Shown here: in pieces, positions 3,721 to 62,323 of the stretch | How the letters are laid out: each line of letters begins with the position of its first letter | Position numbering within the stretch: the first letter of the stretch is position 1 | Origin: an uncultured Planctomycetales bacterium | GTDB lineage: Bacteria; 4484-113; JAFGCY01 | DNA: 64,000 bases | NCBI GenBank assembly: GCA_964512635.1 | Contig: CAZEJB010000014.1 | Location: 15,704-79,703, forward strand | Reading direction: 5' to 3' | Program-made: the position numbers and the translations under genes | The notes under the pieces: generated by a model | The model's input: the letters and a program-made list of their open reading frames with translations, nothing else | What the model was told of the DNA's origin: nothing | Databases searched by the model: none

Positions 3721-4312
3721 CAGTTCCTCCTTGGAGAGCAGCAGTCGGCCACTTGGTATGCCGGCCTGCCGTGACACGGGATAAAGCCTAGCATGTGCGG
3801 ACCCGTTGCGGCGTCTGCGCCGAGGCGCGCGCTGCCCGCGGGCAGCGTTCAACAAGCTCACAGACGGGCCGGCCGGCGCAGTGGTTACCGGACAGCCCCG
3901 CTTCAGGGGCCTACAGCAGCCTCCAAAGCGTCCGAGAACGCGCATGCAGGGATAGAGCCGCGCGGGGCAGGGGAGGTAACGGGCCAGTGCGCGGACGATC
4001 CGTCCGCGTTTGTGTATTTTCCGGGAGTGCCGGGCCAGGCCCGGCATTTTTACCGGAACGCCGACCCGCCGCGCTTGCATCTCTTCCCGGAGCGCCGGTC
4101 GACCGACCGGCTTCCTGTCCCCCACGGCCGGCTGCAAGCCGGGCTCTTGCCCTGGGGCGCCAGCCATAGGCTGGCGTCCTCTCCGGCTGTTACAATCCCC
4201 GCAGATGTCCACTGCCCCGCAAAACCGGCAGCACAGCTCCGCAGGCCGCGCCGCGCCACGTCCGGTGGCACCGGCTTGCAACCGGTGGGTTTTCGCGGCT
4301 GCGCCGCGTGCT

Positions 4313-4425
4313 GGAGCGCCGGCTTCAGCCGGCATCTCCTGGGGAGCGCAGACTTCAGCCGGCATCTGCTGGGGAGCGCAGACTTCAGCCGGCATCTGCT
4401 GGGGAGCGCAGACTTTAGTCTGCAT
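4313..4425. repeat. Tandem of four GGAG-type REP-like palindromes (about 30-bp period)
   Basis: GGAGCGCCGGCTTCAGCCGGCAT, 2x GGAGCGCAGACTTCAGCCGGCAT, GGAGCGCAGACTTTAGTCTGCAT. Relatives at about 25155 and 27847-27902. Confidence 0.8.
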
Positions 4426-4486
4426 CTTCAAGCAGCGCGGACATCTTGCCCGCGTCGCCCGCTCGCGCGGATCGCGTAGCCGGCCG

Positions 4487-20700: not shown

Positions 20701-20961
20701 GGAATGATCCTCCTCGAATGTGCCGGCCGCGGGCCGAGGGGGCAGCCCGGGCTCGTTCGGGCGGGATTTTAGCAGGCGGAATCGGGCGCTGGCCGCGCGG
20801 CGGCAGGCTATAATGACCCTCCCGCGCCCGGGGCAAAAACGGCGCGGCGGAAGCGGACAAATGCGATAGGCGCGCCCGGCGCGGATGCCGGGTAGACTTA
20901 GGTCAGGGCAGGCCGTCAGGGCCGGCCGGAGGGTTGGGCGTAGCCCAGAGTGGAGAGGAAC

Positions 20962-23900
20962 TTGTCCGCGTTTGTCCATCTGCATAATCACAGTGAGTAC
21001 TCGCTGCTTGACGGCATTGCGCGCGTCGGCGACATGGCTGCACGCCTCAAGGCGCTGGAATACGACGCCTATGCACTGACCGACCACGGCGTCATGTATG
21101 GCGCCCTCGAATTCTATCTGGGCATGCAGGCCGCCGGGATCAAGCCGATCATCGGCTGCGAGGTCTATGTCGCCAGCCGTAAGCTGACGGATAAGGACAG
21201 CCAGCTTGACCGCAAGAGCTGGCATTGCGTACTGCTGGCTCAGAACGAGACGGGCTACATCAACCTGATGCGTCTGACCTCGATCGCGCACCGCTTTGGC
21301 TATTACTACAAGCCGCGGGTCGACGTCGAGGCGATCCGGGCGCACAGCGAGGGCATCATCTGCCTCACCGCCTGCCCCAACGGCGTGGTCGCCGGTCCCT
21401 TTCATGGAAAGGCGATGGGGGACGAGGGCCACGAGTCCGAGAGCCGCGCGTCGCAAAGCCAGGGGCCAGGCAGCGGGCTGGTCGGCGGCGGGCTTGATGG
21501 CGCCGACAACGAATGCGAGGCTGGCGGGGTTACGGCGGCACACGAGGCCGCGGCACGCCGCGCGCTCGAAACCTATCTCGAAATCTTCACACCCGAGCGC
21601 TTGTTCCTGGAGATCCAGAACCACGGCATGGACATGGAACGGGCCTACAGCCCCTGGGCCGCGGATATGGCCCAACGCTACGGTCTGCGCCTGGTCGCGA
21701 CCAACGACTGCCACTATGTGGCCAAGGATGATGCCCGGGCCCACGATATCTGCCTGTGCCTGCGCGACAAGAAGCTGCTCAGCGACGAGGACCGCCTGCG
21801 CTACAGCGGGCCGGAGTATTACATCAAGACCCAGGCGGAGATGGCCGAGCTGTTCGGCGCCTATCCGCAGGCACTTGCCAATACCAGGGCTGTCGCTGAC
21901 CTGTGCAACCTGAGTCTTGACCTCAAGCGGGTCTACTTCCCGCAGATGGAAGTGCCGATCGTAGGGGCGAGTCCTGACTCGCCATCTTCTGCCGTAGGGG
22001 TGGGGCTTGTCCCTACCCGTGATGGCGGTGCCGAAGACGGGCGGGATCAAGCCCAAGCCCCTCAAGTCGGAACGGAAGATGGGCGGACACAAGGTCCGCC
22101 CCTACAGGAAACCACCACCGATCAGGCCGCGCAGGATGCCTGGCTGCGCCATCTGGTCCACGAGGGTGCGATCCGGCGCTATGGCAGCATCAGCTCCGAG
22201 CTGCAGGAACGAATTGACTATGAACTTGGCGTGATCATCCCCAAGGGTTTTACGACCTACTTCCTGATCTGCCACGACTTTTGCGACTTCGCCCGCAGCA
22301 AGGGCATCCCGGTCGGCCCCGGCCGTGGTTCCGCCGCCGGATCGGTGGTCGCCTATTGCCTTGAGATCACCGACCTGGACCCGATCAAGTACGGCCTGTA
22401 CTTCGAGCGCTTCCTCAACCCGGAGCGCATCGAGCTGCCGGACGCGGACATCGATTTCTGCTACCGCCGGCGCGATGAGGTGATCGAGCACGTCAAGAAC
22501 AAGTACGGTGCGGACCGGGTTGCGATGATCATCACCTACAGCCGCCTGAAGGCCCGCGCGGTGATCAAGGCGGTCGGCCGCACCAAGGGCATCGCCTTCC
22601 AGTACACCGATAAGGTGACCAAGGAGATCAACGGCCTCAACCCGACCATCGACGAGGCCATTGAAGGCAGCAAGGTGCTGCAGGAGATGATCCGCTCGGA
22701 CAAGGAAATCGCCGAGCTGGTCGAGGATGCCAAAAAGCTGGAGGGAATCGCGGCCTACCAGTCCGTGCACGCGGCGGGTATCGTCATCGCCCCCAGCGAG
22801 ATCAGCAACTACGTCCCGGTCCAGCCGATCAAAGACAGTGATCTGCTGGTGACCCAGTACAGCATGGACTATGTCCCCAAGGCTGGTCTGGTTAAGTTCG
22901 ATTTCCTCGGCCTGCGTAACCTGACGATGATTGAGGACACGGCGCAGTACATCCGCCGGTATGTCGACCCTAGCTTCGACGCCCGCTTTGTCCCTGAAGA
23001 CGACCCTGAGACCTACGCCATGCTGCAGCGCGGCGACAACTACGGCGTGTTCCAGTTTGAAGCGCCGCAGGTGCGCCGGATGCTGATCGACGGCCGGCCG
23101 GAGAACGTGATCGACCTCGCGGCGATCAACGCGGCCAACCGTCCCGGTCCGCTGCAGAGCGGCGGTACCGCCCAGTACCTTGAGGCCCGCAAGGCCGGCA
23201 AGCAGAGCCAGGCGCGCTTCAAGAGCATCGCGACTATCCTTGAAAGCACCGGCGGCGTGCTGCTGTTCCAGGAACAGGTGCTGGAGATCGCCAAGCAGCT
23301 CGGCGGCTTCAGCCTCGGCGAAGCGGACCTGCTGCGCAAGGCGATGGGCAAGAAGAACATGGAAGTCATGCTGGCCCAGAAGGAGAAGTTCCTGGCCGGC
23401 GCCAAGCGCATTGCCGACGAGGGCGGTGCCAGGATCCCCACCCAGGAACTGGAAGACATCTGGCAGATGATGGAGACCTTCGCGGGCTATGGATTTAACA
23501 AGGCCCACTCGGTCTGCTATGCCTGGATTGCCTTCCAGACGGCTTACCTGAAGTGCCATTATCCGCACTATTTCATGTGTGCGATGCTCAACAGCTACCT
23601 CGGCAATGCGGCCAAGCTGGCGCAGATTCTGGCGCAGTGCCGGCGGATGAAGATCCAGGTGCTGCCGCCGAGTGTTAATGACGGCGAGCTGGAGTTTACG
23701 CCGACCGCCACCACGGGGATGGGCGAGATCGGCTCGATCATCTTTGGCCTTGGCGGTATAAAGGGCCTGGGCTCTGCGGCGGTCGATGTGATCCTGGCCG
23801 AGCGCCAGCGCGGCGGTGCATTTGGTGACCTGACGGACTTCTATAAGCGCACGAAGAGCAGCGCGCTGAATAAGAAGGTGCTGCAGAGCCTGGCCTGCGC

Positions 23901-25113
23901 CGGCGCCTTTGACTGCCTCGAGCCGCAGCGCAGCAAGCTGATCCAGCGCCTCGACGATATTGATGTCTTCCTGCGCGGGCCGGAAAAGCAGTTCTCGATG
24001 TTTGACGATTTCAACGCCTCAAGCGAGAACGATAGTGTGCTGCCCAGCAAGGAAGTCACGCGTATCGACATCGCGATGCTGGAGAAGGAAGCCATTGGCC
24101 TCTTCCTCACCGAACATCCCTACGCCGACCACCCGATGTTCTTTGACGACCGCTATGTCCAGCTGGAGCGCCTGCAGGAACTGGTCAACGAAAACCCGGC
24201 ATTCTGGCAGGAACGCCCGCTGCCGGCCAAGGGAATTGTCGGACTGCTGACCAATGTGACGATCCGCATGGCCAATACCAGCAACAAGCCTTTCGCCAAG
24301 GCACGGCTTGAAGATCCGGAACGCGGCGTCGAGCTGGTCATCTGGCCGCGCACACTGGAAGCCGCCCGCGACCTGGTTACTGAAAACAACCCGGTGATTG
24401 TCTGGGGCAAGGTCCAGACGCCGGATGTTGCGGCTAGCGCCGAGCAGGGCGACGAGAGCGAAGCTTTTGAGGCGATCGAGATCATCGTCGAAAAGGTCGA
24501 GCAGTACATCCCGCCACCAGGTGGGATTACCCCACGCGGCGACCGGGAAGAGCGCAGCGCAGCACCCCGCGAGACAACGTCCGCCGCGCGAAATCCCAGC
24601 CGGCTGGCCGATCTGACGGCCAGCGACCTGGCTGCGGCTGAGGCGGTAATGCAGATATCGGATAACGCTGCAGCGGGGGCCAGTCCGGCGCCCGTCCCTG
24701 AGAGCAATCAGGACCACTTGCCGTCCTCGCAGACGCGGCTGCGGCCTGTCCTGCGCCGTGTTGATGCAGACTCGGCAAGCTTCGAAAGCGCCGATGCCGC
24801 TCAGGAAGGAAGTTCATCGCCGTCGCCGGGCCAGTCCGCCGAGGCCGCCGATGAACTGGGCAAGGGTCTTGGCATGATCACCTGGTCTGTCGACCTTAGC
24901 CAGGCCGATGCCGCCGCGCTGAAACTGCTGGCGAATACCCTTGAGCGCACCGAAGGTGAGCAGGAGGTCCGCATGCTGCTAAAGGATGTCGGCGGACAGC
25001 TGCGCCAGATCCGCGTGGGCCAGCGCTTCTTCATCGACGCCCAGCAGGCCGAGGCCATCGAACAGCAGTTCGGCTTCCTGGAACGCATACAGCGCGGCCA
25101 GCCCCAGGCCTGA
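20962..25113 (+). CDS. dnaE: DNA polymerase III alpha subunit with several in-frame insertions
   Basis: FVHLHNHSEYSLLDG, TDHG, GRGSAAGS, PDADIDF, HAAG, KFDFLGL and FNKAH, plus an OB-fold. TTG start after GAGAGGA. Confidence 0.96.
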   Translation: MSAFVHLHNHSEYSLLDGIARVGDMAARLKALEYDAYALTDHGVMYGALEFYLGMQAAGIKPIIGCEVYVASRKLTDKDSQLDRKSWHCVLLAQNETGYINLMRLTSIAHRFGYYYKPRVDVEAIRAHSEGIICLTACPNGVVAGPFHGKAMGDEGHESESRASQSQGPGSGLVGGGLDGADNECEAGGVTAAHEAAARRALETYLEIFTPERLFLEIQNHGMDMERAYSPWAADMAQRYGLRLVATNDCHYVAKDDARAHDICLCLRDKKLLSDEDRLRYSGPEYYIKTQAEMAELFGAYPQALANTRAVADLCNLSLDLKRVYFPQMEVPIVGASPDSPSSAVGVGLVPTRDGGAEDGRDQAQAPQVGTEDGRTQGPPLQETTTDQAAQDAWLRHLVHEGAIRRYGSISSELQERIDYELGVIIPKGFTTYFLICHDFCDFARSKGIPVGPGRGSAAGSVVAYCLEITDLDPIKYGLYFERFLNPERIELPDADIDFCYRRRDEVIEHVKNKYGADRVAMIITYSRLKARAVIKAVGRTKGIAFQYTDKVTKEINGLNPTIDEAIEGSKVLQEMIRSDKEIAELVEDAKKLEGIAAYQSVHAAGIVIAPSEISNYVPVQPIKDSDLLVTQYSMDYVPKAGLVKFDFLGLRNLTMIEDTAQYIRRYVDPSFDARFVPEDDPETYAMLQRGDNYGVFQFEAPQVRRMLIDGRPENVIDLAAINAANRPGPLQSGGTAQYLEARKAGKQSQARFKSIATILESTGGVLLFQEQVLEIAKQLGGFSLGEADLLRKAMGKKNMEVMLAQKEKFLAGAKRIADEGGARIPTQELEDIWQMMETFAGYGFNKAHSVCYAWIAFQTAYLKCHYPHYFMCAMLNSYLGNAAKLAQILAQCRRMKIQVLPPSVNDGELEFTPTATTGMGEIGSIIFGLGGIKGLGSAAVDVILAERQRGGAFGDLTDFYKRTKSSALNKKVLQSLACAGAFDCLEPQRSKLIQRLDDIDVFLRGPEKQFSMFDDFNASSENDSVLPSKEVTRIDIAMLEKEAIGLFLTEHPYADHPMFFDDRYVQLERLQELVNENPAFWQERPLPAKGIVGLLTNVTIRMANTSNKPFAKARLEDPERGVELVIWPRTLEAARDLVTENNPVIVWGKVQTPDVAASAEQGDESEAFEAIEIIVEKVEQYIPPPGGITPRGDREERSAAPRETTSAARNPSRLADLTASDLAAAEAVMQISDNAAAGASPAPVPESNQDHLPSSQTRLRPVLRRVDADSASFESADAAQEGSSSPSPGQSAEAADELGKGLGMITWSVDLSQADAAALKLLANTLERTEGEQEVRMLLKDVGGQLRQIRVGQRFFIDAQQAEAIEQQFGFLERIQRGQPQA
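21961..22105. repeat. Four GTAG-type REPs (two forward, two reverse) inside the dnaE coding sequence
   Basis: GTAGGGGCGAGTCCTGACTCGCC (21961), GTAGGGGTGGGGCTTGTCCCTACCC (21994), a degenerate unit at about 22039, and GGGCGGACACAAGGTCCGCCCCTAC (22081). Confidence 0.85.
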
Positions 25114-26013: not shown

Positions 26014-27666
26014 TTAGATGTCTCCGCCGATGCCTTCGTCATGACCTCCGGGGTCGTCGTCGCCGGGATCATCATCACCCGGATCGTCATCACCTGGGTC
26101 GTCGTCACCTGGATCGTCATCACCTGGATCGTCATCACCTGGGTCGTCATCGCCGGGATCATCGACGCCAGGATCGTCATCGCCCGGATCGTCGTCACCC
26201 GGATCATCCACGCCAGGGTCGTCGTCGCCCGGATCGTCATCGCCGGGATCGTCCTTCAGGGTATCCGGGTCGAAGTGCTTGCCCTTGGGTGCACTGAAGT
26301 ACCACGCCGGGCTGGGCTCGGGGCCGGTCGGGCTGTTGATCCAGTCCACCCAGGCTTGAAAGCCGCTGTAGACGTTGAAGATCGACTCGCCCTCCAGCGG
26401 CCAGGCAAAGGTTGCCGGCACGATGAAGCCCAGCGGCACGCCCTTAGCGTCCACCGGGTCGCCGGGCTTCTGCCAGAGGCCCAGGCGGTACTCAGCGGCT
26501 TCTCCGGGCTTGACCAGCAGCTCAGGCTTGTACGGCAGCGGGGTATAGCTGCCCTGGGCCAGCGGCGGGTTGAAAGTCAGGGTTACGATGGCATAGTCGC
26601 CGGCGACCGGCGTAGTGCCCGCCTTGACGTTAGCGCCCCAGCCACCGGGGCTGGAGGGCAGCGCCTCAGCGGTGGGCGCGAAGACCGGCAGGCTGGTTCC
26701 GTCTATGCTGGTCCAGACGCGCTGGTCGAAGTGGCGCTGGTCGTTGGTATGCACCGCGTCGCCATTGTCATAGAACTGGTCGACCGTGGCAAAAACCCTG
26801 CTGCCGGGGAAGGCCCCGCCAATGTTCAGCTGCCAGTTGCTGGCATAGCCCGCGCCGCGCGCCAGGGCCTTGACCAGCAGGTTAATCTGCACCAGGCGGC
26901 CCTGCTTGTCGCGCAATTCTTCTGCGCGCAGCGAGCCGACATAGTCATTGAAGTCATAGTCGCTGCCGCCGTCCTTGACGTCCTCCCAGACCATCTGGGC
27001 CTGGCCGGCGTCGCTGCCCTGGGGATAGACCAGCGGGTCGGCGGTCGGCGTGGCGCTGAGGGCAAAGTCGAGGCTGAAGAAGTCGCCGGGCAGCAGCGGG
27101 CTGGCCGAGCCGTCCATGTTAAAGGGCAGCTGATAGCTGAAGACCGCCGTGTACTCACCTGTCGAGGAATGCTCGACGTCCCGCTCGACATAGCTCAGGC
27201 CGGCGCCGCGCACGACCCAGAAGCGGTCCAGCACGGTGCCGGCGGCCGCCTCATAGCAGACGTGCAGGTCGACCATGTCGCCGCTGCTGAAGGATCCGTT
27301 AGCCTCCCCGGGGACGGCTGCCTCGCCGTGGGCGCTGATGGCCATCCAGAGAAACTTGAAGCTCTCTCCGGCGGCCAGGGCCGAGCCGCGCCGCAGCGGC
27401 TTGAAGCTGACGGCTGCGCTGGCCGGGGCAAGCTGATATGCGCCGGTGCTGCCAGCAGCCTGAGTTGCCGCTTGCAGTGCGCTGGTTCCATGGCTGAGCT
27501 GCAGTCCGGTCTGGAATTTCAGGTTCAGCGCGGTCGAGCCATCCCCCGGCTTGGGGTTCTTGGGGATGTTGATCGGGGCGCCGTTATAGCCCCCGCACGA
27601 GGTCAGCAATAACACCAGGGCGGCCAGGGCGAGCAGCGCCGGCCGCGAAGCTGATTTGGGAAACAA
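26014..27666 (-). CDS. Lipoprotein with a LruC/DUF4842-like domain and an acidic DDPG-repeat tail
   Basis: LTSC lipobox, WED...DYDFND motif, P..F.WPLEG..I..VY..F..W. TTG start after GGAGG. Confidence 0.75.
   Translation of the reverse strand: MFPKSASRPALLALAALVLLLTSCGGYNGAPINIPKNPKPGDGSTALNLKFQTGLQLSHGTSALQAATQAAGSTGAYQLAPASAAVSFKPLRRGSALAAGESFKFLWMAISAHGEAAVPGEANGSFSSGDMVDLHVCYEAAAGTVLDRFWVVRGAGLSYVERDVEHSSTGEYTAVFSYQLPFNMDGSASPLLPGDFFSLDFALSATPTADPLVYPQGSDAGQAQMVWEDVKDGGSDYDFNDYVGSLRAEELRDKQGRLVQINLLVKALARGAGYASNWQLNIGGAFPGSRVFATVDQFYDNGDAVHTNDQRHFDQRVWTSIDGTSLPVFAPTAEALPSSPGGWGANVKAGTTPVAGDYAIVTLTFNPPLAQGSYTPLPYKPELLVKPGEAAEYRLGLWQKPGDPVDAKGVPLGFIVPATFAWPLEGESIFNVYSGFQAWVDWINSPTGPEPSPAWYFSAPKGKHFDPDTLKDDPGDDDPGDDDPGVDDPGDDDPGDDDPGVDDPGDDDPGDDDPGDDDPGDDDPGDDDPGDDDPGDDDPGGHDEGIGGDI
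26048..26253 (-). repeat. 15-bp coding tandem repeat, 14 x (D/V)DDPG
   Basis: Counted from the translated ORF. Confidence 0.9.
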
Positions 27667-28188
27667 GATCCACCTCCATGTGGCTGTGCCCAACACGGGC
27701 GCACGGGGCAAGCATAACCGCCCAGGCGCGTGCTCGGGCTAAAGGCGGGTTAACACCGCGTACAGCTTGGCCGGACGCTTTAAGCAAAGTGCAACCGCCC
27801 GCGTTGAGCGCTGCGCATAGCCTGTAACCCCGCACGGCATTTTTATGGAGCGCTGGGACTGGCCCGGCATCTTCGCTGGGGAGCGCAGACTTTAGACTGC
27901 ATCTCTCATTCGAGCAGCCTGGAACTTCGCTGCTATCCAAATCAAATCCAACAGGAGACGCAAAGACCCTGAGGATATGGAGGTCGTCGAGCCAGTCAGG
28001 CTGAAGTTCATGTCGACATTCCTGCACTCCGTACAGCGCAGCCGAGCAGCCCTCATTAGTCGCTGTGACTCAGTGTCTCCTGTTTGCTTTTGGATTTGCT
28101 CTGCGGCACCGCGGCTCTTTGTGAATCCCAGCTTTACGCGCCGGGGCACGACGCGCGCAGGGCGCCGCGCTGCTTTTGGGAGAATTGT

Positions 28189-28559
28189 GCGAGTGGGCCA
28201 TAAGCCGGGTTCTGTTTATGCGGCCATCTGTCTGGGCCGTCTGTCTCCAGACGGCTCATGCGGTATTGCGCGGGGGCCGGGCCAGCCTTGCCGCTTTCGC
28301 GGCTCCCACGTCTGCCTTGCACCAGGCGGGTTTGCCTGAGCCGGCGTGTTACCACGCCGCTGGTGAGCTCTTAACTCGCCGTTTCACCGTTGCCAGCGGA
28401 CTCCCTGACCGGAATTTAGGCCTTATGGCCTAGAGCTGGCTGTTTGTTTCTGTAGCGCGTTCCATGGCCTCGCGACCTCCGGGTGTTACCCGGCGCCCTG
28501 CCCTGTGGTGCCCGGACTTTCCTCGAGGTGTTAACCCCGCGGCCGCTTGGCCCACTCGC
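28189..28559 (-). ncRNA. rnpB: RNase P RNA (type A)
   Basis: GAGGAAAGTCCGGGCACC, AACAGAAACAAAC, and the 3' ACAGAACCCGGCTTAT. Complementary ends GCGAGTGGGCCA/TGGCCCACTCGC form P1. Confidence 0.95.
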
Positions 28560-33835: not shown

Positions 33836-34089
33836 AAGAAGATAAAGTGGGCTCTTGCTGTGCAAGCAGCCCGGAGATCCGCGCCAAGAGCAATGTCGCC
33901 CGAAAGAAGCGTGGGTCGCTGGCCAGGATTCTTCAACTCCCAGCGATATGCTTCGACCAACCTAATACAATAGGCGCCTTGTCGGACAGACCCACAGTTG
34001 ACCCGCCGGGAAGCGGGAATACGGGACAAAGTCCCGCGCTCCAACCTGAGCAGCCGGCCGGCTCGCCGCGGCGACTGCGTCTCCCGCCC

Positions 34090-40040: not shown

Positions 40041-40155
40041 AGAGCGCGGGACTGTGTCCCGTATCCCTGGTCAGCTTCGCATTGTCAGGATTCGTGCTTA
40101 TTCCAAGTCTCAGTGTCCTTTAAGGACGAAGAATACGGGACACAGTCCCGCGCTC
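40041..40155. repeat. Inverted GGAG-type REP doublet
   Basis: AGAGCGCGGGACTGTGTCCCGTAT, then ATACGGGACACAGTCCCGCGCTCC. Confidence 0.8.
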
Positions 40156-40157
40156 CA

Positions 40158-41177
40158 TCAGAGGAGCTTCATCATCTCCCGGGCCAGCATACGGTTAAGG
40201 CGGTGGCCGCTGCGAAATGCTGTGACACGCCCGCTCCACTCCGCCGGCACGATATAGAGATCACCGATAAGGTCCAGCACCTTATGCCGCGCGTACTCGT
40301 CGGGGAAGCGCAGGGGACTGTCGGGGACCATCTCGGAGCGCGGACGATCCGTCCGCGAATCTTCAGGGAGCGCGGGACTGTGTCCCGTATCTTCGTCCGG
40401 AAGCGGACCACTGGTCCGCGCTCCGGTCTGCGGACTTAAGTCCGCGCTCCCAGCAGGCCGGATCACCAGCGCGTCCTCGCTGTGCGTGTTCTTCAACAGT
40501 CCCGCTGCGCTCAGCGCCTCGCCTTCGCGCTGAGTAATGAAGGTCCGCGCCGGGAGGATGCCGTCGACTGCCCACTTTCTTGTGATGTCACCAAAGCAGA
40601 CTCGCTGCTCTCCGAGTTCAGGATGACTGAAGGAGTAGTCGATGCTCAGTCGATAATCGGTTATGTCGCGGTTTCGTTCGATCAATATGTAGCTGCCATT
40701 CTCATCTTCGACCCTCAACTGCTCTACTGGCAGAATGGGTCGGTTTGCCGCCATGTACTCCACTCCCGCGGACGCGATCTCGTCATAGAGCGTCCTGGCC
40801 GAACCGTCGTGATTCGGCAGTTCAGTGCCGTTGTCCACCACAATGCGGCAGTGGTCGATGCCGGCGGCCCAGAGCGCGCAAAAGACATGCTCAATCACCA
40901 GCAGGGGCGGGCCGCCCTCGCCGGGCGGGAGCAGGGCCGTACAGTTGGGCAGCTCGAGGTAGCGCTCAGGCAGGGCGGGGTAGCGGTAGCCCTCGTGTTC
41001 AATCAGGATGCCGTGCGCGGCAAACTCCGGCGTGCTTTTCTCGACGTCGTAGGGGATTCCCCCGCGCTCGCATTCCTCGGGCGACAGCGCCGGGCGGATC
41101 TTGCAGGAACACTTGCTGCCAGAGAACAAACCCCTGCCAGAGAGGCCGACGCCGTGCTTGATGGTAGCTGAATGCAT
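40158..41177 (-). CDS. lpxC: UDP-3-O-acyl-N-acetylglucosamine deacetylase with an in-frame REP-derived insert
   Basis: G.GL.SG, IEH..CAL...GID, ELP..DGSA, I..ARTF, RF.DE..RHK.LD.IGDL and SGH.LN. Confidence 0.9.
   Translation of the reverse strand: MHSATIKHGVGLSGRGLFSGSKCSCKIRPALSPEECERGGIPYDVEKSTPEFAAHGILIEHEGYRYPALPERYLELPNCTALLPPGEGGPPLLVIEHVFCALWAAGIDHCRIVVDNGTELPNHDGSARTLYDEIASAGVEYMAANRPILPVEQLRVEDENGSYILIERNRDITDYRLSIDYSFSHPELGEQRVCFGDITRKWAVDGILPARTFITQREGEALSAAGLLKNTHSEDALVIRPAGSADLSPQTGARTSGPLPDEDTGHSPALPEDSRTDRPRSEMVPDSPLRFPDEYARHKVLDLIGDLYIVPAEWSGRVTAFRSGHRLNRMLAREMMKLL
40335..40451. repeat. Four GGAG-type REPs inside lpxC
   Basis: Units at 40335, 40367, 40402 (reverse) and 40429 (reverse). 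The second is essentially identical to the intergenic REP at 40041. Confidence 0.88.
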
Positions 41178-41265
41178 CGCAGCTAGTTATAGATGATGGC
41201 GGATGGCGGATGGCGGATGGCAGAGATGGAGGAATGAGGGTAGGGGCGCACGGCGTGCGCCCGGC

Positions 41266-41688
41266 TCACTTGACTAGTCTGATTGGCAAGCCCAATCCCT
41301 GAACTGACTCAACAAACTCTTGACGACCTCGGTCGGGCAACGATGCTTCCCACCAAGGCAGAACGTAACTTGAATGCGATTGCATAGGGTTATCGGGCAA
41401 TAGGATCGATCGATATCGGTAGTCAATGTCAGAGAGCGATTGTCTGAAGACAACATAGTCGGGCGATGTCTTATCCGAATAGGACGTTATGGCCTCTTCG
41501 AGCAGACGTCGGACGTCAAGGTCAAACATCAGTTCATCATAAATGTCGCCATAGCCAGATTCGCACGTCCCGACAAGCCTGTCCCATCCTTGCAATAGAT
41601 CCCACACAGCCACTGGCCGTCCATAACTCACCACAGTTCTCCAAACGAACTCTGCAAAAGGACCGTTTCGAAATTCTAGTGCCTTCAT
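41266..41688 (-). CDS. Low-GC hypothetical protein carried between inverted REPs
   Basis: 140-aa ORF with a GGAG RBS; AT-rich compared with the flanks. Confidence 0.6.
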   Translation of the reverse strand: MKALEFRNGPFAEFVWRTVVSYGRPVAVWDLLQGWDRLVGTCESGYGDIYDELMFDLDVRRLLEEAITSYSDKTSPDYVVFRQSLSDIDYRYRSILLPDNPMQSHSSYVLPWWEASLPDRGRQEFVESVQGLGLPIRLVK

Positions 41689-41815
41689 TTTGTGTGAATC
41701 AACTCCTCGAAATCACTCCGCAGCGCAAGCTATACGCCGGGCGCACGCAGTGCGCCCCTACATGTCTTCCCAGCGCCACGTTCCATCTGCCATCTGACAT
41801 TTGCCATCTGCCATT

Positions 41816-44815
41816 CTATGAGACCAGCTCCTTCAGCAACTCCCTCAGACTGAGTTGCGCGCTCGGCTTGACCTGGCTGGGGTCGGAGATGTCGCCAAAG
41901 ACGTCGTCGAAGAGGCCCTGCTTCTCTTTTAACATCTTCAGCAGCTTCTCCTCAACCGTGTTGCGGCACAGCAGGTTGATCACCACCACGCTGCCCTGCT
42001 GGCCCATGCGATGCGCGCGGGCGACGCGCTGCGCCAGCTTGGCCGGGTTAAAGGGCAGGTCGTAGTTGACCACCAGGCTGGCCGCCTGCAGGTTCAGGCC
42101 GGTGCCGCCGGCGTCAGTGCTGATCAGGATACGGCTCTTGCCCTCCTGGAAACGCTCGACCAGCTCGCGGCGGCCCTGGGCATCCACCCCGCCGTGCAGG
42201 AAGGCCGGGGCATAACCCGCAGCCGTCAGCTCGCGCAGCAGGATCTCGCCCATTCGCGTCCACTGGGTGAAGATGATCGCCTGGCGATCCAGCGTGCGGA
42301 TCTCGTCCTCAAGGATTGCGTTCAGCTCCGTGAGCTTCTGGCTTTCGCGCTGGCTCGGTTCGATCAGCTCCGGCGTGTCACAGACCTCGCGCAGGCGTTG
42401 CAGCAGGGTCATGGCGTTGTTGGTCGCCAGCTTGTCCCACTGCTCCTTGCTGAGCAGCATGCTGGTCTCGCCCTGCAGGTCCTTATAGAATGCGCGCTGG
42501 ATGTCGGTCAGGCTCAGCCAGCGCTCCATCTCGATCAGCGGCGGCAGTTCGGTGAGCGTCTGGGTCTTTGTGCGTCGCAGGGTCAGGGCCGCGATCTTGC
42601 GGCTGACTTCCTCGACCTTCTGATAGCCCTGGATGCCGCCGAAGCGGTCGAGGATCACGTAGCGGTCGCGGAAGGCCAGCGGGTTGGCGCCGAGAGCCCT
42701 GGGCTCGATGAACTTCATGATGGTGTAGAGCTCCATCAGCTGGTTCTCCAGCGGCGTACCGGTCAGGACAAACAGGTAGGGGCTGGCGAGGCTGAAGACC
42801 GACTGCGCGGTCTTGGTACGGAAGTTCTTGACGCGCTGGGCCTCGTCAAGGATCAGGATGTCGGGGGCCAGGGCCTTGAGCTGCTCGATATCGCGGTGGA
42901 CCAGCTCGTAGTTCACGATGTAGAAGAAGGGCATGTCCGCCGGGTCGTGGAAGATGCCGGGGAGCTGCTGCGCCTTGCCGGATGCCCTGGCATCCGCCTT
43001 GCCGGGCGGGCTGGCCAGGATCTGGTCCAGCAGCGCATCGGCTTCATCGCGCGCGCTGGCCTTCCTGGCCGCACGACCTGCCGGGGCAGGAGGGTCTTTA
43101 GCCTGCTGCGCCGCCGCAGCGCCTGTGGCGCGATCAAAGACTGCCGCCGCCCGATAGATCGATTCCCGCTCGTCCGGCCCGCCGCCAATAACCTCGCAGC
43201 GCAGTCCGGTGAAGCGCTGGATCTCGGACTGCCACTGGTACTTCAGCGAGGCCGGGCAGACAATCAGCGCGCGCTTCAAACCCTGCTTCTGTTTCAGGTA
43301 GAAGGCGGCGGTCATACTCTGCAGGGTTTTGCCGAGGCCCATGTCATCTGCCAGCAGGGCCCGCCGGTTGCTGACCAGAAAGGCCACCCCTTCGCGCTGA
43401 AAGGGGTAGAGCTTGGCTTTCACCGGCGTATCAGAATGGAGCGCGGAGTCTTCGGTGGGGCGGCCGGGCCGCTCAGAATGGAGCGCGTCTTCGGTGGGGC
43501 GGCCCTCAGTGGCCGCCTTCTTCTTATTCTCTGGCTTTGGCAGTCCCCACCACCAAACCCACTTATAGCCCTGTTCATTCGGCCAGCGCTTGTGAGGATT
43601 ATTCAAGATGTACTGCGCTTTCTCGAGAAGTTCGTCATCGTCTCGCATTATCCTATCGAGATACTCATCTTGCCAAAGGGACCCCACATAGCCTAACTCC
43701 TTTTGTGCAGTGTGGGCCGTAAATGATTTCCAGGAATGGACAACGTCCTCAAGGTAGTGCCCGGGCATAGGTTGCATGAGAACATGAACATGGTCGTCCA
43801 TCACGACGTAAGCAAAGAGGTGGTAACGCTGAGTGTCAAAGTGATGAATGGCACTGGCCACCAAATCACGGGCAGCTGGGCTCAGAGTTTGGTGCTTTTT
43901 GTTCAGCCTCCAGGTTACAAAGTAAGTTGAGTTACTTAGACGCCAGTGGGGAAGTCGGTGCCGATATTGAGAAAAATCGTCTTTGGCAGCTGGGATGGCG
44001 GCCAGTGACGGCCGCCCCACCGAAGAGTCCCGCGCTTCATCCTCGGCGCCCTCGCCGGCGATCCACTGTTCAAGCTCCTCCGCCAGCGTCTTTAGTCCCT
44101 CATAGTGATCCAGCACGGGCTTCACTGTTGGGTGTATGCGCACCTGCGCGCCGGCGACGTGCAGCCTGGCGACCAGTTCGGGGCAGTCCAGGGGCTGGCG
44201 CAGGGTATGCACCTGGTCGATATGCGCGGCAAGAATGCTGTGCAGTTCCGGCAACAGGAACTGCTCGGCGTGATAGGCCTGCACCTGGCGGAAGAAGGAA
44301 ATCGACTCTTCGAAACTGATCGCCCGGGCGCCGAACTCCTTCAGGGCCAGAGTGAAGCCCTTGTCGAAGCGCAGCTGGCCCTTGGCCCGGCGCAGCAGCT
44401 TCTCCAGGCGCCAGACATCAAAGTTGTCCCGCAGCGCTCCTTCCGTGCAGTACTCGCGCAGCAGGTTCTGCAACGGCCTGGCCGCCTCATGCGCCGGTGC
44501 GCTGACCAGGAAGCGCACTGACTGCGGCCCTTCGATGCCACGCTGCTTAGCACCGCTGAAGAGCACCACATAGCGCTGCATATGCGCGTCATAGGCCTTC
44601 TGCAGCGCTTCCCAGTCAGTGCCGGCAAAGAAACGGTCCGCCCGCGCGTCGCCGAGTTCTGCCAGCAGACTGGGGTAGGCCGAGTAGTCGCTGAGCGCAA
44701 AGCCGAAGCTGAAGTACTGGTTGATGATCCGGCGTATGTGCGGCGGCAGGCGCTGCTTGTCACCGCTGAAGCGGATCTCATCGCCGTTCTTGCCACCAAC
44801 TACCAGACGCGCCAC
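41816..44815 (-). CDS. SNF2-family helicase/ATPase with an internal RAYT transposase domain
   Basis: YPFQREG, LADDMGLGKT, LDEAQRVKN, LTGTPLEN, IFTQW and GG.GLNLQ.A..V...D.P.NPA...QR.ARAHRMGQ. Confidence 0.92.
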   Translation of the reverse strand: MARLVVGGKNGDEIRFSGDKQRLPPHIRRIINQYFSFGFALSDYSAYPSLLAELGDARADRFFAGTDWEALQKAYDAHMQRYVVLFSGAKQRGIEGPQSVRFLVSAPAHEAARPLQNLLREYCTEGALRDNFDVWRLEKLLRRAKGQLRFDKGFTLALKEFGARAISFEESISFFRQVQAYHAEQFLLPELHSILAAHIDQVHTLRQPLDCPELVARLHVAGAQVRIHPTVKPVLDHYEGLKTLAEELEQWIAGEGAEDEARDSSVGRPSLAAIPAAKDDFSQYRHRLPHWRLSNSTYFVTWRLNKKHQTLSPAARDLVASAIHHFDTQRYHLFAYVVMDDHVHVLMQPMPGHYLEDVVHSWKSFTAHTAQKELGYVGSLWQDEYLDRIMRDDDELLEKAQYILNNPHKRWPNEQGYKWVWWWGLPKPENKKKAATEGRPTEDALHSERPGRPTEDSALHSDTPVKAKLYPFQREGVAFLVSNRRALLADDMGLGKTLQSMTAAFYLKQKQGLKRALIVCPASLKYQWQSEIQRFTGLRCEVIGGGPDERESIYRAAAVFDRATGAAAAQQAKDPPAPAGRAARKASARDEADALLDQILASPPGKADARASGKAQQLPGIFHDPADMPFFYIVNYELVHRDIEQLKALAPDILILDEAQRVKNFRTKTAQSVFSLASPYLFVLTGTPLENQLMELYTIMKFIEPRALGANPLAFRDRYVILDRFGGIQGYQKVEEVSRKIAALTLRRTKTQTLTELPPLIEMERWLSLTDIQRAFYKDLQGETSMLLSKEQWDKLATNNAMTLLQRLREVCDTPELIEPSQRESQKLTELNAILEDEIRTLDRQAIIFTQWTRMGEILLRELTAAGYAPAFLHGGVDAQGRRELVERFQEGKSRILISTDAGGTGLNLQAASLVVNYDLPFNPAKLAQRVARAHRMGQQGSVVVINLLCRNTVEEKLLKMLKEKQGLFDDVFGDISDPSQVKPSAQLSLRELLKELVS
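43431..44020 (-). mobile_element. RAYT domain with inverted GTGG-type REPs, inserted in frame in the SNF2 gene
   Basis: RHRLPHW, TYFVTWRL, VMDDHVH (HUH), WKSFTA, LWQDEY.DRI.R and QYILNNP. REPs at 43494-43517 and 43997-44020. Confidence 0.9.
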
Positions 44816-47278: not shown

Positions 47279-47725
47279 GGAGCGCGGACCCATGGTCCGT
47301 ATCTTCTGCGCTGCGACAAGCCAATGTGGTGCGGGGATCAACCACAAAGATCACAAAGGTTCACGAAGAACACGAAGAGTAGGAATAGAGCCTGGAAGCT
47401 GCCTCTGAGCTGTCATTCTGATGTAGCCAAGGGGGCTGGCAGAGTCTTAGCCTTAGTGCTCTTGGTGCTGCTTGGTGGGCCTGATGTTGAGAAAAGCCAT
47501 GTCCAGCTGTTCTGCTTTGCGTTCTTCGCGAGCTTTACGCTGTGATCTTTGTATGGCAGGTCCGGGACGGCCGAACTGGGGTAGGGGCGCACAGAGTGCG
47601 CCCGGCATTTGGCTCGCTGCCCAGAGCAGCGAATGACAATACCAATCCAATTCGCGGCCCCGGTAGGGGCCGGGCGCACGCGGTGCGCCCCTACAAGGCA
47701 AAAACGGACCATGGGTCCGCGCTCC
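47279..47725. repeat. Nested repeat array: a GGAG-REP pair enclosing a 9-bp array pair and a GTAG-REP doublet
   Basis: Outer REPs at 47279 and 47702-47725; 9-mers at about 47342-47376 and 47515-47550; GTAG doublet at 47581-47694. Confidence 0.8.
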
Positions 47726-60914: not shown

Positions 60915-61345
60915 GAAATGGCGGATGAAGGATGAAGGATGACGGATGAAGGATGACGGATGGCGGATGACGGATGGCGAATAGCTGATGGTTGATGGCG
61001 GAGGGCTCATTTCGGAGGACGAATGGCAAATGGCGAAGGGAGAGGCGCGTGGAGCGCACCCGGGCAGGCAGTCTGCGAGCTGCTGGGTCATGAGTAGGGG
61101 CGCACAGAGTGCGCCCGGCCCATCGCGATAGGCTGGATTTGGATGACAAGTTGGCCTTGTATCAAAGCGGAGCTAGTCATTAGCGATCCGAAGCGTTCAA
61201 TATTGTTGCCGGGCGCACTCTGTGCGCCCCTACGCCTCTTCGTTGTGGCTCTGCATAGGGTTACCCGTACACGCTCCACGCGCACCTGTATCCCCATTCG
61301 CGTTCCGCCAATTAGCCATTAGCCATCAGCCATTAACCATTCGCC
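60915..61345. repeat. Inverted 7-bp arrays enclosing a GTAG-REP doublet
   Basis: GATGAAG/GATGACG/GATGGCG units; REPs at 61094 and 61211-61233; CCATTAG/CCATCAG units. Confidence 0.8.
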
Positions 61346-61363
61346 ATCAGCCCTCCGCCATTT

Positions 61364-62323
61364 CTACTGTCCCGGCTCGGGCGGCGGCAGCTCGACCTTA
61401 TTCACGGCCCGCGCATTACCCCGCAGCACCACGACCAGGCCGACGACGATCACCACCGCGCCGGCGATGGTCAGGCTGCCGGGCAGCTCATGCAGCGTCA
61501 GCATCGCGATCAGGATCGTATACAGCGGCTGCGTCTGGTTCAGCAGCATCACCTGGCTGACCGGCAGATAGCTCAGCGCCAGCAGGTAGGTGTTGCGCGC
61601 CAGGATCGGGCCGATCAGCGCGCTGGCCGCCAGCCAGAGCCACTGCACGGCGCCCAGCGTGGGCCAGCCCGGCTCAAGCAGCAGCCAGCCGCAGCAGAAG
61701 ATCAGCGCCAGGCTCCAGCCGCGATACAGCACCAGCCGTGGCACGCTGACCGCGCGCAGGGCCAGCTTGCCGGCGACCTGCGAGAAGCCCAGGGTCAGCG
61801 CGGAGAGGATGGAGAAGGCGAAGCCCAGGCCCGACCCGCTGAGCGCGCCCCAGCGCACCAGCGCGACACCGGCGGCGGTAATGCCGATGCCCAGCCACTG
61901 CCGCGCGCTGAAGCGCTCCTTCAGCCACCACATGCCAAGGGCAATGCCGACGACGGCTTCAAGCCGGCTGAGGATTGCCGCCACGTGCGCCGGAATCAGG
62001 TCAACGCTGAGCCAGACGCAGATAACGCCCAGCGCCGAGGCCAGGCAGTGGATCGCCACCCACAGCCAGTGGCGGCGGAAGTTATGCGGGTCGGCGCCGC
62101 TGGCCTCCAGGCTCGGCATTTGTCCGCGGCTGCTCAGGCCGTCCCAGACCGTGTTGACGAGGGCGGCCATGATGTAGGTGATAGCCGCGAAGCGCCAGGC
62201 CCCGACATAACCCAGCGCGTACTTGCCGATGACGAAGTTGGCGGCGGCGCTGAGGGCGTAGCCCTGGGTGAAGAGCAGGCCGGTCTCCAGTTGTTTCGCG
62301 CGGCCTGCGGCGGGTGGCGTCAC
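61364..62323 (-). CDS. EamA/DMT family transporter
   Basis: About 10 TM segments in two repeats; LKERFS and L.HELP. Confidence 0.88.
   Translation of the reverse strand: MTPPAAGRAKQLETGLLFTQGYALSAAANFVIGKYALGYVGAWRFAAITYIMAALVNTVWDGLSSRGQMPSLEASGADPHNFRRHWLWVAIHCLASALGVICVWLSVDLIPAHVAAILSRLEAVVGIALGMWWLKERFSARQWLGIGITAAGVALVRWGALSGSGLGFAFSILSALTLGFSQVAGKLALRAVSVPRLVLYRGWSLALIFCCGWLLLEPGWPTLGAVQWLWLAASALIGPILARNTYLLALSYLPVSQVMLLNQTQPLYTILIAMLTLHELPGSLTIAGAVVIVVGLVVVLRGNARAVNKVELPPPEPGQ

Follow-up and report, generated by a model that had tools for sequence, protein, structure and literature searches.

In-frame REP-type palindromes in a predicted disordered loop of LpxC from an uncultured Planctomycetales bacterium: a probably tolerated, ancient and still-evolving insert

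How can a gene for a core enzyme of outer-membrane biogenesis take up a cluster of repetitive extragenic palindromes (REPs) in its reading frame and remain a working gene, and how long can such a cluster persist there? The question is raised by the lpxC gene, encoding UDP-3-O-acyl-GlcNAc deacetylase, located at 40158–41177 (minus strand) of a 64,000-nucleotide (nt) stretch of DNA from an uncultured Planctomycetales bacterium (assembly GCA_964512635.1, contig CAZEJB010000014.1, positions 15,704 to 79,703), which was analyzed as a whole and is hereafter called the window. The open reading frame (ORF) of 339 amino acids (aa) contains a 117-nt cluster of REP units at 40335–40451 (minus strand, like the gene), through which the sense frame runs without a stop codon (encoded peptide ...AGSADLSPQTGARTSGPLPDEDTGHSPALPEDSRTDRPRSE). 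The evidence presented here makes it probable that this cluster is a tolerated, ancient and still-evolving selfish REP insert carried by a working LpxC in a loop predicted to be disordered.

Four GGAG-type palindromes in the lpxC frame had been reported at 40335–40451 in a preliminary description of this DNA, and this observation proved correct throughout. U1, or core B (40335–40364, plus strand; GGAGCGCGGACGATCCGTCCGCGAATCTTC; stem of 8 bp, loop of 3 nt), consists of a GGAGCGC head, the hairpin CGCGGACG-ATC-CGTCCGCG and an AATCTTC tail, and is followed by U2 (40367–40394, plus strand; GGAGCGCGGGACTGTGTCCCGTATCTTC), U3, or core A (40399–40425, minus strand; GGAGCGCGGACCAGTGGTCCGC on the coding strand), and U4 (40427–40451, minus strand; GGAGCGCGGACTTAAGTCCGC on the coding strand). 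All four units follow one design, namely a GGAGCGC head, a perfect GC-rich stem of 6–8 bp, a loop of 2–4 nt and an (A)ATCTTC-like tail. U1 and U2 point rightward on the plus strand and U3 and U4 point leftward, so that the cluster is composed of two nested heads-out pairs. The 19-nt hairpin of U1 has an identical copy in intergenic DNA at 3990–4008. A CRISPR-like reading of the 32-nt spacing was considered and rejected, as the units vary both in sequence and in orientation, with no unique spacers between them.

At the protein level, the cluster enlarges one turn of the enzyme. The RP and MVP codons (...EDALVIRP to MVPDSPLRFPDEYARHKVLD) are separated by 123 nt, and DALVI is separated from LRF by 49 residues. 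In the phmmer alignment with E. coli LpxC, residues V238 and P285 of the window protein correspond to V217 and N225, with 46 residues between them in the former and 7 in the latter. The length excess claimed in the preliminary description thus amounts to 39 residues relative to E. coli; it holds against 56 of the 59 other aligned LpxC sequences, the remaining three having a comparable insert. In the AlphaFold2 (AF2) model constructed from a 60-sequence alignment, residues ~242–282 form a coil with a predicted local distance difference test (pLDDT) value of ~52 between strands 237–241 and 283–285, that is, in the turn of a beta-hairpin, so that the structure prediction suggested earlier as a check yielded a confident LpxC core with the insert as a low-confidence coil. 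Along the sequence, the end of the insert is 13 residues from H298 of the zinc-binding HKxxD motif. The encoded loop is rich in Ser, Pro, Arg, Asp and Glu, and no peptide repeat arises in it, the two forward units being translated in different frames. Two distant LpxC proteins, P0017 and P0025, have 7–15 extra residues at the same turn; recurrent REP invasion was rejected for these proteins, since their loops contain no notable palindromes and have essentially no copies elsewhere on their own contigs. These extensions, which are not derived from REPs, indicate that the loop intrinsically tolerates changes in length.

The identification of the 339-aa ORF as LpxC was based on Pfam, phmmer searches against the PDB, AF2 and Foldseek. 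The Pfam LpxC family (PF03331) was matched with 157.8 bits (cut-off 27) in two stretches, with a break after residue 242, and sequence identity with characterized LpxC enzymes was 22–24%. According to the phmmer alignment, E96/H97 of the window protein correspond to E78/H79 of E. coli LpxC, T212 to T191, H298/K299/D302/D306 to H238/K239/D242/D246, and H325 to H265; in E. coli numbering, we take H79, H238 and D242 to be the zinc ligands and E78, T191, K239, D246 and H265 to be the catalytic residues. Residues E96, H97, H298, K299, D302, D306 and H325 were invariant among 60 homologues, and both the HKxxD and the SGH motifs were found. The AF2 model had a mean pLDDT of 88.6 and a predicted TM-score (pTM) of 0.88; the 50 best matches listed by Foldseek against the PDB were all LpxC structures (TMt 0.77–0.90, root-mean-square deviation 2.2–2.7 Å), and the two-domain beta-alpha-alpha-beta fold of LpxC was recognized from the model together with these matches. 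The ratio of nonsynonymous to synonymous divergence (dN/dS) in pairwise comparisons with three orthologues was 0.14–0.28, at a synonymous divergence (dS) of 0.6–1.0. Judged from its sequence, the insert-bearing LpxC looks functional; its deacetylase activity and its role in lipid A synthesis are predicted, with indirect support from dN/dS.

In comparison with the characterized LpxC structures of E. coli, P. aeruginosa, A. aeolicus and Y. enterocolitica, the window protein has the fold, the zinc ligands and the catalytic residues in common with them, whereas it differs in having 39 additional residues at the hairpin that corresponds to E. coli 218–224, in a second, clade-specific insertion (residues 30–56) and in lacking a C-terminal extension of the E. 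coli type. The second insertion (residues ~30–56, window ~41010–41090) includes a segment of ~20 aa, LSPEECERGGIPYDVEKSTPEFAAHG, with low pLDDT, which is common to the four close orthologues, and a further extension of 5 aa (RNRDITDY; residues ~168–175, window ~40655–40675) is present in the window only; neither looks REP-derived.

It is hardly credible that the gene is a decaying or unexpressed copy, or that repeats misled the assembly into showing an insert. Equivalog cut-offs are missed by the protein (the scores are given below), and the assemblies are of the metagenome type, in which misjoins at repeats are possible; against this, the ORF is intact, the catalytic residues are all present, the dN/dS values are those of a constrained gene, the locus is syntenic with that of an insert-free orthologue (L001, see below), and three assemblies made independently (the window, ERR9118884 and SRR14610248) agree on the site of the insert. 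The preliminary description had also raised the question of a second, uninterrupted lpxC. Within the 64-kb window none was found, a weak tblastn match at 3926–4111 being due to similarity of REP-encoded peptide, and the insert-bearing gene itself is under purifying selection.

Further units lie in the surroundings of the gene. About 20 REP units in the window fit the definition of short elements composed of a head and a hairpin (20–40 nt), and the most repeated 11-mers of the window include a GTAG-headed repeat and GGAGCGCGG(G)AC, the latter with ten mostly intergenic copies per 64 kb against ~1.4–3.7 expected. Two such units adjoin lpxC and form a heads-out pair between convergent genes: the first lies at 40041–40066 (plus strand), 5 nt past the stop codon of a BatA-like gene, and the second at 40131–40156 (minus strand), 1 nt past the lpxC stop codon, with the tail CTTCGTCC common with U2. 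As the preliminary description had noticed, one unit of the cluster is essentially identical to these intergenic REPs: U2 matches them at 24 of 24 positions (40042–40065, plus strand, and 40133–40156, minus strand). A fourth copy of the U2 type, with one mismatch, was found at 34019–34041, while 100 dinucleotide-preserving shuffles yielded no U2 matches. These identities are compatible with local copying or gene conversion of U2 from the adjacent pair. Heads-out pairs in the window are found at 40041/40156 and 47279/47725.

The earlier assignment of the lpxC units to a different REP class was not upheld. The window also contains a true GTAG family, whose ATCTTC tail is the same (compare GTAGGGGCGAGTCCTGACTCGCCATCTTC at 21961), and the GGAG "second family" is, as far as its sequence organization goes, a head variant of one architecture, namely a head, a 6–8 bp stem, a 2–4 nt loop and an ATCTTC tail. 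The GGAG family is also carried by the genome with the insert-free orthologue. A scan of JGI metagenome contigs for GAGCGCGGGACNNNGTCCCGTAT returned two contigs with one shared sequence and without BLAST similarity to the window. It should be noted that REPs are defined as extragenic, whereas the four lpxC units are translated and thus belong to the exception class of intragenic REPs.

The age of the insert was assessed from orthologues. A protein database of 5.8 billion sequences contained only three close relatives of the window LpxC, namely P0002 (328 aa) and P0004 (327 aa), whose loci (L002 and L003) bear an insert, and P0003 (303 aa), whose locus (L001) does not; when the GTDB representative genomes were scanned with the LpxC protein, the L001/L004 genome (metagenome-assembled genome "bacterium isolate SJ870") was the sole return. 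In P0002 and P0004 (identity 70–78% overall, dS of 0.8–1.0 from the window), the inserts are at the same codon as in the window protein. Cores A (GGAGCGCGGACCAGTGGTCCGC, forward) and B (GCGGACGGATCGTCCGCGCTCC, reverse), with the same left and right junctions, are present in the window, L002 and L003, each of the two window cores being identical to its counterparts in L002 and L003 at 22 of 22 positions, and the spacers of the three inserts are homologous and diverged. The slot between the cores is occupied by U2 in the window, by a one-mismatch duplicate of core B in L002 and by a non-palindromic sequence of 30 nt in L003; U2 is thus specific to the window lineage, as is U4, an extra 30-nt unit upstream of core A. 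In the window and the three orthologues, the RP and MVP codons lie 123, 99, 102 and 12 nt apart, every one of these distances being a multiple of three. The shortest is that of L001, a syntenic locus (RAYT-SNF2 / lpxC / BatA-like) in which the site holds LEGG only.

A neighbor-joining (NJ) bootstrap analysis of the four close sequences and four outgroups, evaluated by splits, grouped the window, L001 and L002 with 100% support and gave 0% for monophyly of the insert-bearing sequences. Since the insert-free L001 is nested among insert-bearing orthologues, the insert appears to have been lost there, and because of this nesting the most economical scheme consists of one insertion, turnover of units and an in-frame deletion in L001. 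On these comparisons, the insert is not recent and probably reflects shared ancestry with later loss in L001. Thus, the part of the preliminary description that recognized a translated REP cluster in an intact lpxC near the HKxxD motif stood, whereas its proposal of an independent invasion did not, the outer units and junctions being shared by orthologues.

Another explanation of the same pattern is recurrent independent insertion at a hot spot, that is, at a RAYT-type, IS200/IS605-like target, in which case L001 would never have had REPs. The "empty" sequence of L001 (CCCCTGGAGGGCGGG) contains GGAG/GGAGGGCGG, like a REP head; the three insert-bearing lineages each have a different inner unit; perfect core identity is what conserved REP variants would show if recently inserted; and the same or near-identical hairpins of the family do occur elsewhere in the window (3990 and 47279). 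However, this explanation requires the same two REP variants to have been inserted three times in the same orientation and with the same nucleotide junctions. Past core A, the tails of the three lineages are homologous with one another (10–11 of 14 nt) and unlike those of A-like copies elsewhere (TATCTTC at 47300), and the nested position of L001 implies at least two or three gains versus one gain and one loss. Recurrent insertion is regarded as unlikely.

The cores deserve separate consideration, as they are the best conserved DNA of the gene. The longest identical runs of the three-way codon alignment are cores A and B (22 nt each; the next longest is 12 nt), and three-way nucleotide identity over the whole of lpxC is 0.66. 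Third codon positions are identical at 15 of 15 sites in the cores versus 123 of 309 elsewhere (Fisher p = 1.7e-6), and only 0.2% of codon-column shuffles produced two or more runs that were 22 nt or longer. Divergence begins at once outside the cores, which excludes a recent transfer of the whole region. Furthermore, the cores keep the rare codons AGT, GGT and GGA in a genome of 62% GC; frozen synonymous sites and retention of these codons cannot be explained by selection on the peptide, and the constraint, as read from the alignment, points to the nucleotide level.

Conservation of this kind raises the possibility of exaptation, in which the insert would be kept for use by the host as mRNA structure, as a binding site of the neighboring RAYT-SNF2 protein or as a disordered loop with a regulatory or degron-like role in the protein. 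E. coli keeps its LpxC levels under tight control, and the insert has been retained across a dS of ~1, with cores that exceed the rest of the gene in conservation and keep their rare codons. The mRNA of the insert segment has a predicted fold of −78.2 kcal/mol (z = −3.8 versus shuffles). In L003, where a related REP head is also found past the lpxC stop codon, this intergenic REP has diverged beyond the head and the first stem arm, while the intragenic cores are unchanged. Stems also differ between the REPs that the window and L001 carry at another orthologous site, the spacer that separates the genes for an M20 peptidase and a DUF58 protein. On the other hand, L001 has dispensed with the insert while its lpxC is still under purifying selection; neither the unit content nor the peptide is conserved beyond the cores; the forward units, being translated in two different frames, form no peptide repeat; and the predicted RNA structure shows no compensatory changes. 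Rfam revealed no known RNA family in or near lpxC. REP stems are conserved at other loci too: the GTAG pair adjoining lpxC has the same stem in the window and L001, which makes a genome-wide process that maintains REPs (transposase recognition, conversion) as good an explanation as host function. Exaptation of the insert is considered quite unlikely. Much the same doubt attaches to the narrower suggestion that the cores are selected as cis-acting elements, either as mRNA structure setting LpxC output or as recognition sites of RAYT-SNF2; if true, it would account for their being conserved more than any other DNA of the gene despite near-saturated synonymous sites.

The reading that we consider probable, a selfish REP insert tolerated by LpxC since the ancestor of this lineage, may be set out as follows. 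In the ancestor of a small uncultured lineage, a heads-out pair of GGAG REPs (a REPIN-like doublet of ~100 nt) would have landed in lpxC, in the turn of the surface beta-hairpin equivalent to E. coli residues 218–224. The gene would have survived because the insert was divisible by three in length and free of stop codons in the sense frame, and the enzyme would have remained LpxC, bearing the repeat-encoded segment as a disordered loop. Subsequently, the cluster may have behaved like an intergenic REP cluster, with units added, replaced and deleted, only frame-preserving changes surviving: the window lineage would have gained U4 and come to hold U2 in the inner slot, L002 would have duplicated unit B, and L001 would have deleted almost the whole insert. 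Meanwhile, the ancestral cores would have been kept by a process acting on nucleotides, whether REP/RAYT-linked recognition or homogenization, or selection on the hairpins. The anatomy and frame of the cluster, the intact features of the enzyme, the presence of the insert in several orthologues, the nested position of L001 and the conservation of the cores are direct observations; that a RAYT mobilized the units, that U2 was copied locally, that the loop is neutral and what preserved the cores are inferences from them.

Several observations weigh against this reading. Only four close sequences underlie the phylogeny of lpxC, and two of these come from 1-kb contigs. In L001, the site (CTGGAGGGCGGG) is similar to a REP head and is readable as an empty target rather than as a deletion scar. 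A purely neutral passenger would not be expected to have perfectly conserved cores. The head of the units is GGAG and not the canonical GTAG or CGTC of REPs, nor is it among the published degenerate heads (GYAG, GTRG, GTGG; PMC3733652). Finally, the score of the protein against the TIGR00325 equivalog was 104.4 bits, below the cut-off of 187.25, and PRK equivalog cut-offs were likewise missed; this is attributed to the divergence of this LpxC clade and to the break that the insert makes in the match.

A candidate enzyme acting on the REPs of the window is encoded next to lpxC. The adjacent ORF for a SNF2 helicase (41816–44815, minus strand) contains, at residues 290–422 (43550–43948, minus strand), a domain of the REP-associated tyrosine transposase (RAYT) type, 2.4 kb from the lpxC start, which matched Pfam Y1_Tnp with 35.2 bits and positions 4–146 of the 146 positions of NCBIfam NF047646 with 74.1 bits (cut-off 80). 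The HVHVL (HUH) and YILNNP (YxxxNP, with the Tyr) motifs are intact in its translation. The domain and its flanking hairpins make up an in-frame insert of ~215 aa (residues ~246–462; within 43430–44020) that is absent from SNF2 orthologues of ~740 aa. The two flanking REP-like hairpins, at 43997–44016 and 43498–43517, have the same stem, GGCGGCC/GGCCGCC, and from its sequence the insert looks like a whole REP-RAYT-REP unit translated inside the helicase. Of the 5.8 billion proteins in the database, only four have the RAYT-in-SNF2 architecture. It is not mentioned in a survey of Y1 HUH enzymes that left out proteins of unusual length and fusions (PMC6006769). This fusion may merit a study of its own.

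The same SNF2 ORF has a second, low-complexity insert (…FDRATGAAAAQQAKDPPAPAGRAARKASARDEADALLDQILASPPGKADARASGKAQQLPG…; residues ~557–625, ~42940–43145) inside the ATPase core, present in the window and L001 only and containing a perfect 8-bp hairpin at 42979–42996. In many relatives that are more distant, lpxC and the SNF2 helicase gene share a contig (e.g., contigs of P0015/P0128, P0053/P0134 and P0029/P0138), and their adjacency seems to be conserved well beyond the REP-bearing clade.

Palindromic repeats carried in frame are already known, and what is added here is a new host gene, a series of orthologues and conservation of the cores at the nucleotide level. REPIN/RAYT systems and REP clusters of the bacterial interspersed mosaic element (BIME) type were reportedly described in Pseudomonas and E. 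coli by Nunvar in 2010, Bertels and Rainey in 2011 and Ton-Hoang in 2012. The window resembles them in having inverted doublets as the unit, a conserved head by a hairpin, clusters of mixed units and a RAYT-type Y1 HUH domain nearby. However, their elements are by definition extragenic, whereas the lpxC cluster is translated, and the RAYT of the window is a domain in frame in a SNF2 helicase rather than a free-standing gene flanked by REPs.

Palindromic elements of Rickettsia (RPEs) lie in frame in protein-coding genes, according to Ogata et al. (2000) as cited in PMC3733652 and PMC10969869. With behavior alone compared, RPEs and the lpxC cluster are alike as selfish palindromes translated as extra peptide in functional, even essential, genes; the host of the former is an obligate intracellular alphaproteobacterium, whereas that of the latter belongs to a GC-rich uncultured lineage. 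RPE-1 is a single element of ~100–150 bp, in contrast to the cluster of 25–30 nt REP units in lpxC.

The closest precedent in form is the set of intragenic GTAG and CGTC REPs ("REP-decorated" proteins) of Di Nocera, De Gregorio and Rocco (2013), with the highest numbers in Opitutus terrae and Rickettsia conorii (PMC3733652). Intragenic dimers in that set encode 20–30 aa and clusters encode 43–82 aa, heads-out dimers predominate, and the hosts include dnaE and other replication and repair genes, with insertions suggested to be in flexible loops (PMC3733652). Like the lpxC cluster, these REPs are short head-plus-hairpin palindromes, mostly in dimers or groups, within ORFs of known proteins, and dnaE is a host both there and in the window; their heads are GTAG or CGTC, whereas those in lpxC are GGAG. 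Age, turnover and probable loss indicated by orthologues, and cores that are the most conserved DNA of their gene, characterize the lpxC cluster, and neither was found in PMC3733652. The supplementary files of that paper did not contain lpxC, and no literature on REPs in lpxC was found.

The locus suggests that REP-type selfish palindromes can settle in a core enzyme of outer-membrane biogenesis without breaking its gene, persist and turn over there, and be removed again. The orthologue series, with alleles of 41, 34, 33 and 4 residues, represents a natural experiment on disordered loops derived from mobile elements. As LpxC is an antibiotic target, it is of practical relevance that large insertions are tolerated in the hairpin that directly follows Insert II. 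The conservation of the cores bears on what maintains REPs, whether transposase recognition, homogenization or host function.

Other REPs of the window provide context for the cluster. The dnaE gene (20950–25113, plus strand), which encodes DNA polymerase III alpha, contains two in-frame GTAG REPs at 21961–22105, between the PHP and polymerase domains, namely GTAGGGGCGAGTCCTGACTCGCCATCTTC and, reversed, GAAGATGGGCGGACACAAGGTCCGCCCCTAC (translation ...VGASPDSPSS...GTEDGRTQGPPLQ...). A dense intergenic REP cluster occupies 3980–4440, with at least five GGAG-type units with different stems at 3990–4176 and a 30-nt tandem array of GGAG units at 4313–4427 (3.8 copies, 92% matches), some of which are "hybrid", with mismatched stem arms. 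The GTAG REP pairs at 41240/41736 and 61094/61208 are each bracketed by inverted heptamer arrays (41190–41815 and 60915–61365), in which GATGGCG (four copies) stands opposite CCATCTG (4.6 copies) and ATGACGG-type heptamers (eight copies) opposite GCCATYA-type ones; this arrangement suggests a larger composite inverted-repeat element. Between the arms of the former pair, which separates lpxC from the SNF2 gene, lies a 140-aa ORF (41266–41688, minus strand) with no Pfam or NCBIfam match. At the syntenic locus of L001 (5897–5964) the same two GTAG arms are 49 nt apart, and, by this comparison, ~430 bp appear to have been inserted into the GTAG doublet of the window. Elsewhere, a 15/45-nt tandem repeat (13 or 4.4 copies) at 26051–26253, within overlapping long ORFs (26014–27711), probably encodes a repetitive acidic peptide, and RNase P RNA of bacterial class A (28186–28558, minus strand; 214 bits) is the sole Rfam family that reached the gathering score in the window.

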